A stretch of 47,560 nt of DNA from a virus. Its lineage: Duplodnaviria > Heunggongvirae > Uroviricota > Caudoviricetes. Below the pieces are notes generated by a model. The model was not told the origin of the DNA and ran no database searches. It saw only the letters and a list, made by a program, of their open reading frames with translations. The position numbers and the translations under genes are program-made. The stretch lies in IMG/VR virus record IMGVR_UViG_2630968533_000001; one strand, written 5' to 3'. Positions 1,165 to 45,441 of this stretch are shown here, in pieces; position 1 is the first letter of the stretch; each line of letters begins with the position of its first letter.

Positions 1165-1425
1165 ATGACGGGTTACGAATTGAAATTATGGCGTCGTGGG
1201 ATGAACTGGACGCAGGAGCGAGCCGCCGAAGAGTTTGGGATATCGTTGGCTACATATAAGCGATATGAGAAGGGTGAGCCGCCGAGGGTCATTGAGATGG
1301 CCATTCGCGTTCTGTCGTTTGACGATATGGTTAAGGATCTTTCACACCTTGATAAAGATGTGATTCTGTTAAGGCTGCAAACCCTTGTATGGGAAAAGGT
1401 TAAAGTGTCGTCAGAATTGGAATAA
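1165..1425 (+). CDS. Small HTH (XRE-like) DNA-binding protein
   Basis: ORF track; N-terminal LWRRGMNWTQERAAEEFGISLATYKRYEKG resembles a Cro/C1-type helix-turn-helix. Confidence 0.55.
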   Translation: MTGYELKLWRRGMNWTQERAAEEFGISLATYKRYEKGEPPRVIEMAIRVLSFDDMVKDLSHLDKDVILLRLQTLVWEKVKVSSELE

Positions 1426-1486
1426 GGGATCAAATGATCCTTTACGGATCGTTTTATGGTGGTGTAATGTAAGCGCCAGAAAGACA

Positions 1487-1510
1487 AAAACCGCCTTGCC
1501 GGGCGGTTTT
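1487..1510. terminator. Bidirectional intrinsic terminator-like hairpin (AAAACCGCC...GGCGGTTTT)
   Basis: Perfect stem ccgcc/ggcgg flanked by an A-run and a T-run. Confidence 0.5.
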
Positions 1511-2023
1511 CAGTCTGAAATTTAAATCTTGCTTGGTAGGCTGGATTTAAAAAGACACCTCTTGATTGGGGCGGCTTTCTTGCGTCTAAAGATAATCAAA
1601 TCTTTTTGCGCCTGCAACCCCTTTTTTACTGGTGCCCATTTCAGACTCACGCTCGCGTCGTTGTCTTTGCCACTTCGTTGGGTTCGGTGTTTTTGGGCGA
1701 AGTGGCGCGCGGGTATGCGTACAAGGGGAAAGTGTGCTGACGCAAGCCAGGAACAGCGATCTAAACTAAGTCGAGTCTGAGAAAGGCAGGAGTGCGACAA
1801 CTCGCCTGTGCTCTATGAGCAGAAGAAGGTATATCAGACGACCAATGGCATGATTGTGGGCCACAGGGCGCACACGGCGGCGAAGCATTGGAAACGATGT
1901 GGAGCTATCTGGTGGCATGAGTTCCGGTACTCGATCTCGAGCTTTTTTTGATGCTTTTGAGAAGGGGCCGGAACTCCGGTAAAGGGCACCCTGTATGGGG
2001 GGAGGGGGGGGTGTGTCTGAAGG

Positions 2024-2236
2024 GTGGTTATCGGTTATGGTGGAATTATGATGCGTAGAAAAGCGAGTTTGCTGCAAGCTGTTGGGTCCATTATTTCTTT
2101 GTTTCCGGCAGTTGATCATTTTCGTCATATGGCGACACGTTCCAGTATGGGCTTAGCGCGTGATGCTGACGCTATTCGAAAGGATTTTCAGAAAGTCTCT
2201 GGCGTTGATAAGAGAGAAAAGAGTAAGGGGCCGTAG
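2024..2236 (+). CDS. Small hypothetical ORF (alternative start ATG 2048), low confidence
   Basis: ORF track; ends just before the hairpin at 2225-2242; preceded by a G-rich tract; no homology recognised. Confidence 0.2.
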   Translation: MVIGYGGIMMRRKASLLQAVGSIISLFPAVDHFRHMATRSSMGLARDADAIRKDFQKVSGVDKREKSKGP

Positions 2237-2242
2237 CCCCTT
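2225..2242. terminator. Hairpin AAGGGGC-CGTA-GCCCCTT between convergent genes
   Basis: Perfect 7-bp stem directly downstream of the antirepressor stop (minus) and the small + ORF. Confidence 0.4.
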
Positions 2243-2246
2243 GTAG

Positions 2247-3416
2247 TTATGGTCTGCTCTTCTGTGCCAGCTTATCAGCACATGTTTTTATCAGATCCTG
2301 TAGTGTCCTGGCTGGCAGGTTTGCATCCAGTACGCTGAGTATGCTGTTGTGATCTGCTTGGTCGACTACTTTGCCTGTCGGTGGTAGTAGCTTGAGCTGA
2401 GGATTCAGGTTTTCGTCAAAGCTGATAAGTGCTCTGGCGTTTCTGAGCAGATCAAGAAGTAAGGCTGATATCACATTTTCCTGAGTCATTGCTGACAGAT
2501 TTAGCGCCGCTTTGGTTTTCCCTGTTGCCTTGTCAAACTCCTTGATTAGTTCCTTCCTGTAGTTCGGTTCCGTTAATAGCCGATTATGCTCTGTTGCCGC
2601 GCGGATAATCGTTTTTTCCTGGTACAGTCGTTTAGCCAGATCACGCTCGTACTGTGTTTTTAACACGCTGCTGATAGCGTTAAAGGCTTCAATGTAGGCC
2701 AGCTTGATATCTTTCACGCCTGGACCGTCGATACTTTCCATGAGCAAGGTAAATCCGTCTTTTGTCATGCGATAGATTGTTATTTCGCGGTCGCTTCCTT
2801 CCAGCGGTCGTTGCTCTTTAAAGAAATGACGTGCCGCAGCTGTGCGAGGAATGCGTAACGCATCGATGGCCATAACGATGGAATTGTTTGTGGTGCTGAA
2901 TGCCTGGGCAACATCGGCTGAGGTTGTGAGTGGCTCGTTGTTGCACACCTTAATGTAAAACATCGGTTTGGCGTTGAGCGTATCGACAACCTCACGAGCA
3001 TTGTTTGGCGAGACGGTTACGGTCGCGGCCGTTTGTGTGTTCTGGCTGAAATAGCAGTCTTCCAGCCGTTCGAACACATCCCAAGCCTGATCGGTTTCAA
3101 GCATTTTGGCGTGACGTGCAGCCCCGCGTTCTGTCCAGAGAATGAGGGAGCGGGCTTTCGGGGAAATTTGTAACCCTCTTAAAGATGGTTGCACATTTTG
3201 TGAGTGACTTAAAGTCACTCGCAAAGTTTTTAACTCATCGCCAGCCACTTTGAAAAAATGCTTTCCTTCAATAAAGCGGTTTGCGTTACGTGAGTAATTT
3301 TTTTTGATGTTATCAACGTCTGTGCCGTATAGCTTTGCCAGTAGTTCAGTAGTGATAACGGGGATCTGGTTATGCAGGATAGGCTGTAGGGTGTTAACGG
3401 TCGGAAGCGTTTTCAT
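2247..3416 (-). CDS. Phage antirepressor (N-terminal ORF6N-like and Rha-like domains)
   Basis: ORF track; N-terminal motif ITTELLAKLYGTDVDNIKKNYSRNANRFIEGKHFFKV typical of ORF6N antirepressors; central PLTTSADVAQAF segment Rha-like; start overlaps the stop of the upstream small ORF (ATGA). Confidence 0.65.
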   Translation of the reverse strand: MKTLPTVNTLQPILHNQIPVITTELLAKLYGTDVDNIKKNYSRNANRFIEGKHFFKVAGDELKTLRVTLSHSQNVQPSLRGLQISPKARSLILWTERGAARHAKMLETDQAWDVFERLEDCYFSQNTQTAATVTVSPNNAREVVDTLNAKPMFYIKVCNNEPLTTSADVAQAFSTTNNSIVMAIDALRIPRTAAARHFFKEQRPLEGSDREITIYRMTKDGFTLLMESIDGPGVKDIKLAYIEAFNAISSVLKTQYERDLAKRLYQEKTIIRAATEHNRLLTEPNYRKELIKEFDKATGKTKAALNLSAMTQENVISALLLDLLRNARALISFDENLNPQLKLLPPTGKVVDQADHNSILSVLDANLPARTLQDLIKTCADKLAQKSRP

Positions 3417-3604
3417 TTTGCACCTCCCATAACTACTTTGGTTACGAGGGAGATTTTTGCGTCAGAAACAGCGTTATCGTTGCTGGCGATGCGCATAGCT
3501 TCGCGCTCGATGATTTCAGCCAGGCGGAATTTATCGGCGTATGAGGCTTTCTTGAGAAGGATCTTTACGAGGTTGACGTAATAGTCATGGGGTAGGTTTG
3601 TCAT
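3413..3604 (-). CDS. Small protein (63 aa) translationally coupled to the antirepressor (icd-like position)
   Basis: ORF track; 4-nt overlap with the antirepressor start; SD-like AAGGGA upstream on the minus strand. Confidence 0.45.
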   Translation of the reverse strand: MTNLPHDYYVNLVKILLKKASYADKFRLAEIIEREAMRIASNDNAVSDAKISLVTKVVMGGAK

Positions 3605-3769
3605 TGTGATGATTCCCTTAAAGGTTAAGGATACTCACCACCGTCAGGTTCCAATCATTGGGTGGTGAGACGTGCAGGGTTGGAACTACCGGACACAATG
3701 ACGAACCGGCGAGTCTTACGACTCCCCCGCACGCCCCACCATAATTTGGGTGTAGCAGTGCTTTACGCA

Positions 3770-3869
3770 TAAAAAAACCGCTAACGCGGTATGCGCCATT
3801 GTGTCTACGGGGTTCCAATCCCGACCGTAGATTTTGCTACGGCTCGGAAAGTGTCCACCAATGGCGCAT
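3770..3869 (-). ncRNA. Candidate structured small RNA / leader element (c4-like hypothesis)
   Basis: On the minus strand an 11-bp terminal stem (3791-3801 with 3859-3869) encloses an inner hairpin ctacgg/ccgtag, followed by hairpin accgc-gtta-gcggt and a U7 run (3770-3790); loop sequence has a near-complement at about 3680-3695 in the downstream leader. Confidence 0.25.
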
Positions 3870-4360
3870 TCATGTCAATACGGCGGGATTTTAACAGAGA
3901 CAACCACATAGCGTGGGTTTATTGGTAGGCAGAAACAAAAAAACCGCCCTATTGAGGACGGTTCTTTCGTGCTGATCGGATTCGCGGTCCTTTCAGCATA
4001 ACGTCGTTGTATAAACAACCACGCAAGCACAAGCAGCAAGTTAATTTTACCCAAAAGGTAATAATAGTCCACTATTATGCTTCAAAAAATTGTGGTTCTT
4101 GTTGTGCCTGCAAACTCACAGATTGTGGGTAGGTTACTGATTTTGTGAAAATAAACGAGTTTTTTCGTTTAATTTCTTTCCTATTACTAATCTTAAAATA
4201 ATCGTAAAATACCTGTGGACCTTCCCGCCGATTCGCACCCGGGCACCGACTTTAGGGGAGGATTCTCCGTTGCCGTACATGCAAGCACAAGCAGCCGTGC
4301 TTGCTCTCGCGTTGTTTTCGTCGGTGGGGATGCCGTGAAACGGCCTGTAAGGGCCATACA

Positions 4361-4483
4361 ATGAAAAAATACTGTATGTGTATTTTTATCGTTGTTACTG
4401 GGGCTTTGTTTACGCCACATGGGGAGGGTTGGAAGATTACTGATAACGCTCTGAATGTGACGATAAACATTAGCAGCAAGTAG
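4361..4483 (+). CDS. Small hydrophobic ORF (40 aa, MKKYCMCIFIVVTGALF...), speculative
   Basis: In-frame ATG within ORF 4301-4483; hydrophobic N-terminus; followed by a strong terminator; no SD seen. Confidence 0.2.
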   Translation: MKKYCMCIFIVVTGALFTPHGEGWKITDNALNVTINISSK

Positions 4484-4487
4484 CGAT

Positions 4488-4512
4488 TAGGCCCCTTCGG
4501 GGGCCTTTTTTA
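4488..4512 (+). terminator. Rho-independent terminator (AGGCCCC-TTCG-GGGGCCT then T-run)
   Basis: Perfect GC-rich hairpin followed by TTTTTTAT. Confidence 0.55.
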
Positions 4513-15331: not shown

Positions 15332-15407
15332 GGCCCCTTAGCTCAGTGGTTAGAGCAGGCGACTCATAATCGCACGGTCATCGGTTCAAATCCGGTAGGG
15401 GCCACCA
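15332..15407 (+). tRNA. tRNA with CAT anticodon (tRNA-Met or lysidine-type tRNA-Ile2-like)
   Basis: Cloverleaf read by hand: acceptor GGCCCCT/AGGGGCC, D-arm GCTC/GAGC, anticodon loop CTCATAA (CAT at 15365-15367), T-arm ATCGG-TTCAAAT-CCGGT, encoded CCA; G1-C72 paired so not an initiator; 5' half resembles E. coli ileX as recalled. Confidence 0.85.
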
Positions 15408-43989: not shown

Positions 43990-44469
43990 AAGATAATCAT
44001 GTGACCAATTATTGTAATAATTTTAATGGTATGTTTCTACTGGCTATCCAGCGTGTCTGATACCCAGTAACAAATCGTTAACACAGGTGCAATCAAATGG
44101 TGAGTGTTAAGACTGGCCACTTATTACCAGGTATGAGGGTATGAGTGGCCAGCATTAAATCAGAACAGCCCTTTAACTGAACTGGCCGCGCTGTTAAGGG
44201 ATGATGTCACCTTATCTTTGAAGCCGGACAGCATATTGCTGAACGATGAGTTTACCGCAGGTTTCTGGCTGGGAATCATTGACTGGAGTTAGGCCAGTAG
44301 TATGATGCTCGCAAAACGAGATCCAATTTAGATCCTTTTACTGGTGGATTATCGTTCGATCAGTGAGAGACTTCGTGCATGACCGAAAGTGTTGTGGTAG
44401 AGTTCTCTTAAAACCACGTAACGTGGTTATGATTGTGGGTGTCTGGTTGGAAAGTGACCAGATATGGAA

Positions 44470-44590
44470 ACAAAAAGCCCGCAGATAAATCTGCGGGCTT
44501 CTTGCGACATCCACGGAAAACCAACAATTAACCATGGGCGCCTCGACAACTCCCATTATACGTTGGTTTTCCGTGGACGCAAGAGCGAAC
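44470..44590 (-). ncRNA. CopA-like antisense RNA region (copy-control hairpins in the repA leader)
   Basis: On the minus strand: long stem-loop (44510-44577, arms TCCACGGAAAACCAAC / GTTGGTTTTCCGTGGA) followed by hairpin GCCCGCAG-ATTTA-CTGCGGGC and U-run (44471-44499), the architecture of IncFII CopA antisense RNAs. Confidence 0.45.
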
Positions 44591-44592
44591 AT

Positions 44593-45441
44593 ATGGATAG
44601 ACCAATGCCGTCTCTACGTTCAGCTTACGTTTGTAATTTGTCGCCGGAGTTCCAGCCTCCAAAGCACCATACGCACAAGCTGCCGCTGGTGTTATCTGAT
44701 GCTTTACAGCGCATTAATGGGCGTGATCTTACGTGTGAGGTTGCGTTCTACGTTAATCAACCGTCAGAGCGGAAGCGCCGGATAAACGAGCATCGTCGTC
44801 GGGCGATTAATGCTGTGATCGCTGCGATTTTGCACCATGTAAACATCATTTCTAAGCGGGTTCTGGCCAGTGCTGAGGCGTTGGCTGATTTTTGCGGCCT
44901 GTCTACCGTATCCGAAGCTGGGAACAAGTCTATAACACGCTGTACAAGGGCGTTGTCGCAACTGAAAGCGTTAGGTTTTATTGATTATGAACGTCGCTGG
45001 GATCGGGTGAATAAACAGTATTGGCCAGCGAAAATAGAGATTCGTGATCAACTGCTGGAAACCGTTGGTATTACTGAACAAGCATGGAGACGTGCGGTTA
45101 GCCAGAAACTTAATTACTTCAATGCGAAGAATAGCGAACGGCTTAAAAAAGCGATAACGGAGGCTGATTATAAGCGTATTGTTATTCAGGAGCAGATGGA
45201 GAATGTATGGCGTCAGAGGAAGACGGCCAGAGAGATAAAGGCAAAACAGAAAGCAGCGGAGAGAGCTGCGCGTCTTGTTCGGGAAAAGGGAGAGGCCGAA
45301 CTTCGTCATCAAATCACTAGAGAGGTTAGCCAGGAATTTGCTGATGGCATGTATCCTGGAGCTGACCTTGCATATTTACGATCCCTCGTTGAGCAGCGTT
45401 ATAACAGGTTAAGAAAGACCTGGAAATCACTCCAACATTAA
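44593..45441 (+). CDS. repA: Replication initiator RepA (IncFII RepA1-like)
   Basis: ORF track ORF 44464-45441; core CGLSTVSEAGNKSITRCTRALSQLKALGFIDYE recalled as close to R100/R1 RepA1; start placed at ATG 44593 to match the ~285-aa length of RepA1. Confidence 0.75.
   Translation: MDRPMPSLRSAYVCNLSPEFQPPKHHTHKLPLVLSDALQRINGRDLTCEVAFYVNQPSERKRRINEHRRRAINAVIAAILHHVNIISKRVLASAEALADFCGLSTVSEAGNKSITRCTRALSQLKALGFIDYERRWDRVNKQYWPAKIEIRDQLLETVGITEQAWRRAVSQKLNYFNAKNSERLKKAITEADYKRIVIQEQMENVWRQRKTAREIKAKQKAAERAARLVREKGEAELRHQITREVSQEFADGMYPGADLAYLRSLVEQRYNRLRKTWKSLQH

Follow-up and report, generated by a model that had tools for sequence, protein, structure and literature searches.

A probable, highly diverged ColE1-class replication origin in an enterobacterial phage-plasmid

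Positions 1427 to 2024 of the viral DNA held as IMG/VR record IMGVR_UViG_2630968533_000001 are probably a replication origin of the ColE1 class, highly diverged and carried by a phage-plasmid. The record is a stretch of 47,560 nt, which we call the window; it amounts to approximately the whole of a circular phage-plasmid of ~48 kb that carries myovirus structural genes, an IncFII-type repA (44464-45441; Pfam, 1.3e-43), ParA, and a HigB-type toxin-antitoxin pair. Origins of the ColE1 type are a well-known kind of system; the phage-plasmid lineage is one that typing has previously missed. A preliminary description of the window, made from its sequence, had called this region non-coding and structured. 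Both parts of that statement hold, as no coding sequence is annotated between 1425 and 2048 in the 71 RefSeq E. coli genomes and 61 PLSDB plasmids that carry the region, and as the RNA folds with compensatory changes.

The first clues to a relationship with ColE1 were weak: an 18-bit match to the Rfam RNAI family on the minus strand, and a hairpin at 1485-1512 that makes a good terminator only on that strand. Comparison of ColE1 with the block by blastn, in both directions, returned nothing. Alignment to ColE1 (NC_001371) was collinear from the RNAII promoter to the origin, with a score of 255, while natural sequence scored 163-166 ± 13-15 (maximum 215) and reversed or complemented controls scored 151-180. 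We also searched the window by nhmmer with a ColE1-family profile made from nine diverse ColE1-type origins (75-100% identical to ColE1). The sole significant match fell at 1416-1510 of the plus strand (E=2.3e-5) and spans the GATC-flanked inverted repeat, the -35 element, the -10 element (TAATGT versus TAATCT), the A-run, and the first hairpin. Aligned globally with the nine origins one at a time, the block gave z=5.1-7.7, and its 3′ two-thirds alone gave z=3.5-5.2; every such score exceeded the maximum of 150 natural null segments. When the two families were aligned jointly, 169 of the 295 columns invariant in both were identical.

The two families also share structure. Projection of the consensus structure of the block onto ColE1-family sequences left 58% of positions paired, compared to 39-43% in slid controls. 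Four helices are common to the block and the nine ColE1-type origins at aligned columns: the promoter inverted repeat (91% paired in the ColE1 family, 48% in the slid control), the RNAI-terminator hairpin (93% and 43%), a hairpin with a GGAAAC loop (83% and 40%), and an origin-proximal hairpin (85% and 54%).

The preliminary description had proposed RNA folding as a check, and this yielded a consensus fold of the plus strand with compensatory changes. Across 26 distinct copies the fold has 153 pairs, and pairing holds in 99.5% of cells. Double compensatory changes are seen in nine pairs and one-sided exchanges of G-U for G-C or A-U in ~25, with almost no change that breaks a pair. None of 500 column shuffles matched the fold, and slid controls contained 0-2 compensatory pairs. 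The minus strand folds with fewer pairs and more breaks, and the G-U exchanges would become A-C mismatches there. An Rfam search, also proposed, did not name the long RNA: Rfam 15 gave no gathering-level match in 1400-2300, and up to E=10 it returned noise only, apart from the weak RNAI match.

Both inverted repeats that had been singled out from the sequence are in place, at 1669-1677 (GCCACTTCG) with 1698-1706 (CGAAGTGGC), and at 1919-1927 (GAGTTCCGG) with 1968-1976 (CCGGAACTC). Nine-nucleotide inverted repeats are commonplace, with 15 pairs of at least 8 nt in this 1 kb of sequence; these two form the cores of evolutionarily retained helices. The first lies in a plus-strand hairpin (1669-1706) that has five pairs with compensatory double changes and is, by alignment, the homologue of the ColE1 RNAII hairpin GCCTTACCGG...CCGGATAAGGC, with which it shares GUUGG at the start of the loop. 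Overlapping its 3′ arm is a near-invariant 54-nt block (1704-1757, plus strand). This block was unchanged in the first 16 distinct copies, carries an A-to-T change at about 1749 in one of the 26 (L051), and aligns with the best-conserved block of ColE1, around the G-rich loop at about -265. The GGAAAC-loop hairpin (1885-1900, plus strand), with two compensatory pairs and three stem variants, is the homologue of the ColE1 hairpin CCAGG-GGGAAAC-GCCTGG. The second noted repeat belongs to the long origin-proximal hairpin (1919-1976, plus strand), whose 19-20 pairs are 100% paired in the 26 copies and show 3-4 one-sided G-U/G-C changes. Its ColE1 homologue contains a run of six G residues (at -20) in the 3′ arm, which aligns with GGGG in the block.

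Two metagenomic copies lack parts of this structure. L049 (227-801) has a clean deletion of ~1668-1717 that removes the first of these hairpins and the small hairpin that follows it, and its G tract reads G6AG5TG. In L057 (2398-2998), 22 nt are gone (~1769-1790), a loss predicted to break two helices. These deletion variants may be functional copies or assembly artefacts.

A coding origin for the conserved sequence was rejected. ORFs (open reading frames) inside 1513-2024 are unconserved, there is no codon-position bias, and single-base, frame-shifting indels occur. The idea of a decayed gene, left open by the preliminary description, fails on the same lack of third-position bias, on the tolerance of frameshifts, and on the compensatory changes in RNA helices. 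We also rejected a hok/sok-like type I toxin mRNA, as a conserved small hydrophobic ORF is missing, and a CsrA sponge, as the ~7 GGA motifs per 520 nt are about what chance would give.

At the left end of the module, the inverted repeat AAATGATCC/GGATCGTTT (1427-1454) contains GATC (Dam) sites and lies across the -35 element of the primer promoter; profile alignment identifies AAAGGATCT/AGATCCTTT as its ColE1 counterpart. The palindrome GGATCAAATGATCC was considered as a repressor operator and set aside, since it does not recur elsewhere and corresponds to the ColE1-type promoter inverted repeat. The predicted RNAII-like promoter (1441-1470, plus strand) consists of a -35 element TTTACG (1441-1446) and a -10 element TAATGT (1465-1470) preceded by TGgTG, and its sequence is invariant in the 26 distinct copies. 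From alignment to ColE1 TTGAGA...TAATCT, primer RNA is predicted to start near A1478. The resulting RNAII-like preprimer (1478-2024, plus strand) would measure ~506 nt to the aligned ColE1 switch from RNA to DNA and ~547 nt to the end of conservation, and ColE1 RNAII is about 550 nt long (PMC8683028).

The hairpin AAAACCGCC/GGCGGTTTT at 1485-1512 would open the series of stem-loops in the primer RNA and would act, when read from the minus strand, as a terminator with a T5 tail. It aligns with the terminator hairpin of ColE1 RNAI, matches positions 75-97 of the Rfam RNAI model, and probably also ends the transcript of the gene to its left. Within the predicted 5′ end of the primer RNA, we predict a complementary RNAI-like antisense RNA of ~76 nt with two stem-loops (1482-1558, minus strand). 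The Rfam RNAI model (RF00106) matches 1484-1557 of that strand from end to end, except that the middle stem-loop is absent, and scores 18.1 bits where the gathering score is 47. This weak match has the location and orientation predicted from ColE1, and the polarity of the terminator agrees with it. The match has E=0.24 for 201 nt searched against all families and is lost for the other clades in a larger search space. The two-stem-loop fold of the antisense RNA is found in three clades, with z of about -3.5 to -3.9. One stem-loop (1522-1549, plus strand) is common to the RNAII-like and RNAI-like RNAs; its stems differ between clades (GCTT..AGGC, GGTT..AACC, and GGT..ACC) and include one compensatory pair. 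Since the bin 1525-1549 is the most variable of the 25-nt bins of the module, as expected of an incompatibility determinant, this stem-loop is a candidate determinant of incompatibility or specificity.

At the right end, CGGTAAAGGGCACC (1977-1990, plus strand) aligns with ColE1 TATGGAAAAACGCC in the combined alignment and is a candidate site for RNase H cleavage and the start of DNA synthesis. The position aligned with the ColE1 RNA-DNA switch is CCGGTAAAGG, at about 1978-1985. All 2-kb bins of the window (1-47560) have a positive GC skew, including those in the 2-7 kb block with minus-strand genes. This uniformity suggests that one strand is leading throughout, by unidirectional or rolling-circle replication, and is compatible with unidirectional rightward replication; as the skew has no switch, it carries no information on the position of an origin.

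Like ColE1/pMB1-type origins, the block is a non-coding module of ~550 bp, and it keeps their elements in order: a promoter with the GATC repeat, an A-run followed by the hairpin that would also be the antisense terminator, a central block, the GGAAAC hairpin, the origin-proximal hairpin with its G run in the 3′ arm, and an A-rich switch. Several differences weigh against assigning it to this class. The local nhmmer match reaches only the promoter and the 5′ hairpin, and for the remainder the case consists of global-alignment statistics and common helices; a replicative function is read from homology and selection. The block is too diverged for blastn and, apparently, for MOB-suite, whose typing in PLSDB lists no replicon for these plasmids. 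The family is also missing from a PlasmidFinder and hidden Markov model census of 1,035 ColE1 replicons (PMC8683028), in which six accessions available by 2020 are absent. The RNAI match lies far under the Rfam gathering score, and the antisense promoter, picked by eye, is weak (-35 TTTAGA, 1590-1585; -10 AATCAA, 1567-1562), with a -10 element that varies between clades. At two G-rich sites the block has four G residues where ColE1 has six, and an additional invariant G6AG7-8 tract downstream of the switch point has no ColE1 counterpart. The carriers are unlike the typical small, multicopy, mobilizable ColE1 plasmid: the host is a non-mobilizable 48-kb tailed-phage genome, and with an IncFII RepA replicon, partition and a toxin-antitoxin already present, a constitutive multicopy origin seems redundant. 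Lastly, the predicted RNAI has two stem-loops, while that of enterobacterial ColE1 replicons has three. An RNAI with two stem-loops is a feature of ColE1-like replicons of Vibrionales and Pasteurellales, not of Enterobacterales (Ares-Arroyo et al. 2021, PMC8683028). The predicted RNAI of the block resembles theirs in its number of stem-loops, and those replicons are small plasmids of other orders.

We found the full-length block in 61 PLSDB plasmids (57 from Escherichia, 3 from Salmonella, 1 from Klebsiella), in 71 of 5426 complete E. coli genomes, ATCC 25922 among them, and in 3 virion-derived Yersinia phage genomes. A metagenome scan added 15 copies on as many contigs and barely widened the divergence. 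A scan of genome contigs for the block gave chance matches only, and the block was absent where relatives of the neighboring regulator gene at 43-53% identity were searched by synteny. The carriers are 47-52 kb long, non-mobilizable, and encode a complete myovirus. Canonical ColE1-type origins occurred in the phage collection only in records resembling cloning-vector contamination, and in the literature we found no paper connecting ColE1-type origins with plasmid prophages. The same 61 PLSDB records hold both the ColE1-like block and repA, and from this co-occurrence we infer that the block is a core second replicon of the element.

Among the other explanations, one holds up best, though we consider it unlikely: the block descends from an RNAII that no longer primes and now has a regulatory or scaffolding role in the immunity region, which it could fulfil, for example, through transcription that converges on the anti-repressor operon or as a binding partner of some phage or host protein. 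The location agrees with such a role: a regulator gene flanks the block on one side and the ant operon of a P1-type immI module, convergent to it, on the other, and the element already has an IncFII RepA replicon. A selected RNA structure could be explained by any RNA function. Against this account, the promoter, the 5′ hairpin and terminator, the central block, and the origin-proximal hairpin are all kept in ColE1 order, with an end of conservation just past the aligned switch point, a pattern most simply explained by retained origin function. Complementarity to the rest of the element is not above chance, which speaks against co-option and led us to reject a trans-acting antisense regulator.

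The boundaries of the module are sharp. The module (window ~1427-2024) is retained in all members of the family. On its left, outside the origin, lies a gene for an 86-amino-acid (aa) XRE-type helix-turn-helix (HTH) protein (1165-1425, plus strand; Pfam HTH_3, 5.8e-7; PHROG 6962). On its right, the conserved tail TGTGTCTGAAGGG (2012-2024, plus strand) forms the boundary: conservation stops at about 2022-2024, and at least five unrelated continuations begin from the same nucleotide position. The slot that follows (~2022-2246, compared among L004-L008, L017, L039, and L049) contains nothing, a 62-aa ORF, a 211-aa ORF (PHROG 23465), or one of two other sequences. The relatives without cargo (L005, L004, and L049) lack the 62-aa ORF and have the terminator straight after the G tract, and in L006 the 211-aa ORF takes the place of the 62-aa ORF. 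In the window, the small ORF noted earlier is present and starts with ATG (2048-2236, plus strand; 62 aa); it has no Pfam match and a weak match to PHROG 26284, and it is a "hypothetical protein" in near-identical RefSeq plasmids. Because at least five alternatives follow the conserved block, the 62-aa ORF is optional cargo, not something that the upstream region targets, and the supposed tie between the G tract and this ORF is correspondingly unsupported. A terminator scan of both strands places a bidirectional terminator hairpin at 2225-2242, common to the slot and the convergent anti-repressor operon.

The sequence GGAGG within the G tract is followed 5 nt on by GTG (TTG in most relatives), which opens a mini-ORF of 10-15 codons (2001-2058) with conserved opening residues, M-C-L/P-K. 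In the window, the stop codon of the mini-ORF falls in the region where the 62-aa ORF starts. These features raise the quite improbable alternative that the module is a long structured 5′ leader controlling a downstream gene, with GGAGG as a strong ribosome-binding site for the mini-ORF (MCLKG...) and the mini-ORF coupled to the cargo. In favor of such a leader, every variant has a GTG or TTG start after the GGAGG of the tract, the first four codons are conserved, and the mini-ORF and the cargo ORF overlap in the window as described. Many copies have no cargo and a terminator directly after the tract, the cargo genes are mutually unrelated, and the homology to ColE1 origins would be left unexplained.

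Comparison of clades shows how strongly the module is maintained. Between E. coli and Salmonella clades the module is 88-89% identical, compared to 70% (nucleotide) and 72% (amino acid) for the adjacent HTH gene. The repA gene, which lies 3.6 kb from the module and belongs to another type of replicon than ColE1, retains only 60-80% nucleotide identity between the same clades. The two replicons, repA and the ColE1-like block, evolve at very different rates. If the block were a functionless relic, left behind when a small ColE1-type plasmid once formed a cointegrate with the element, it would be expected to decay; instead it is present in all 61 PLSDB family members, is better conserved than the flanking genes, and keeps its helices between clades by compensation. 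We regard the relic as very improbable, even though cointegrates of ColE1 with larger plasmids are known (PMC8683028 supplement) and typing tools do not recognize the block.

The G6-A-G8 tract reported earlier is in place, with G6 at 1997-2002, A at 2003, and G8 at 2004-2011. It lies 12-30 nt downstream of the position aligned with the ColE1 RNA-DNA switch, just inside the module boundary, and is unique in the window (0.16 expected). Among 31 independent copies from plasmids, phage genomes and metagenomes, 27 have G6AG7, 3 (including the window) have G6AG8, and 1 has G6AG5TG; the first G6 run is unchanged in all 31. The G8 allele arose by a T-to-G substitution that leaves the length of the tract unaltered, and neither insertion nor deletion is found within the tract, even in clades that are 88-89% identical. 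Since the 31 copies vary by substitution and never by slippage, the pattern indicates purifying selection, the opposite of phase variation, and the slipped-strand length variation that had been suggested for the tract does not occur in them. An intramolecular G-quadruplex, also suggested, would need four G runs, and the tract has two, with no other G tracts nearby; a bimolecular RNA-DNA quadruplex may form. Least probable of all is that the tract switches the small ORF (2048-2236) by strand slippage or a G-quadruplex. The 15-nt homopurine tract does lie 37 nt upstream of this ORF, but its length is constant and it varies only by substitution, the ORF is optional cargo, and two G runs cannot make an intramolecular four-run quadruplex. 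As an rG:dC hybrid is very stable, we propose, speculatively, that the tract holds the RNA-DNA hybrid of an R-loop in place, or halts the polymerase where the primer region ends.

A model for a ColE1-class origin in the window can be set out by analogy with ColE1. From the promoter at ~1441-1470, transcription on the plus strand would begin at ~1478 and yield an RNAII-like preprimer, which would fold into the conserved helices, among them the two that contain the inverted repeats noted earlier. Correct folding would keep the 3′ part of the preprimer on the template as an R-loop near 1978-2024, as in ColE1. RNase H would trim the hybridized primer, and DNA polymerase I would extend it rightwards. 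Initiation frequency and incompatibility would both be set by the minus-strand countertranscript, which would run from ~1558 to 1482, stop at the 1485-1512 terminator, and base-pair with the preprimer at its 5′ end. G6AG7-8 would lock the rG:dC hybrid or stall RNA polymerase and so define the end of the functional module, and beyond 2024 any cargo would be tolerated.

Which role such an origin plays is a separate question. ParA and the toxin-antitoxin pair suggest a low-copy prophage. Because the element also has the IncFII RepA, ParA, and the toxin-antitoxin, we favor a conditionally used origin, active in lytic growth or amplification, over a maintenance origin. Ordinary replication as a co-resident plasmid replicon, or a non-replicative co-option, may also account for the block. 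A more specific version, which we offer tentatively and consider doubtful, is that the block is an initiator-free, R-loop-primed vegetative origin that is throttled by the antisense RNA in the prophage while RepA maintains the element, with the G tract fixing the 3′ end of the primer in the manner of conserved sequence block II (CSB II) of mitochondrial DNA.

Two known systems bear on this version. The lytic replicon of P1 (kilA-repL/oriL) adjoins the c4-icd-ant operon of immI. Its oriL must be transcribed through in order to work, lies within the gene for RepL, and requires that phage protein. The arrangement here is similar in that a second origin, separate from the RepA maintenance origin, lies beside a module of C4 RNA, icd and ant. 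Unlike the P1 replicon, the block has no initiator gene and is convergent to ant, and the two have no sequence relationship. Human mitochondrial CSB II (G5-6AG7-8) lies on the non-template strand at the transition of the primer from RNA to DNA for the heavy-strand origin. There it forms a hybrid RNA-DNA G-quadruplex that stabilizes an R-loop and terminates transcription. The motif in the block is nearly identical, with two G runs parted by one A at the (here predicted) end of a primer transcript. The mitochondrial system and its polymerase are unrelated to the block, and the likeness, known here from sequence alone, may be coincidental.

If the assignment is correct, ~1.3% of complete E. coli genomes, that of the quality-control strain ATCC 25922 included, as well as Salmonella and Klebsiella strains, carry an unrecognized second replicon, one that replicon typing, incompatibility prediction, and copy-number models miss. 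The ColE1 class, one of small mobilizable plasmids, would then take in a tailed-phage genome as well. The block would also be a candidate answer to how a phage without recognizable replication proteins of its own replicates after induction; in the annotated genome of the element, we saw no helicase, primase, polymerase, or lambda O/P-like gene. The invariant G6AG7-8 by the predicted primer end may show how R-loop origins set their start point, and the sharply bounded variable slot at 2024 would be a natural site for cargo insertion.

To the right of the slot, the convergent anti-repressor gene (2247-3416, minus strand) encodes ORF6N and Rha domains, by Pfam and PHROG matches, and belongs to a P1-type immI module. 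Upstream of it on the same strand, the immI module, of the P1/P7/N15 type (3413-3843), contains an isrK-like RNA (3771-3843; Rfam, 67.7 bits), a C4 antisense RNA (3658-3746; Rfam, 77.8 bits), and an icd-like ORF of 63 aa (3413-3604). The Salmonella relative L004 also gives a c4-a1b1 target match. By the immunity region lies a full-length ryfA RNA (4215-4511, plus strand; 141.8 bits against a gathering score of 80), which is usually treated as a chromosomal enterobacterial RNA.

Regarding the element as a whole, two candidate relatives were ruled out: pSLy3, which is SSU5-type and about 100 kb, and HQ103, an unrelated phage of 32 kb. Plasmid NZ_CP032086.1 of E. coli ATCC 25922 (94,204 bp) has two copies of the module and ~2x the usual length; it probably represents the 48.5-kb phage-plasmid in dimeric form or duplicated during assembly. 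The window also includes a tRNA gene inside the phage-plasmid, at 15332-15404 on the plus strand (Rfam, 67 bits).

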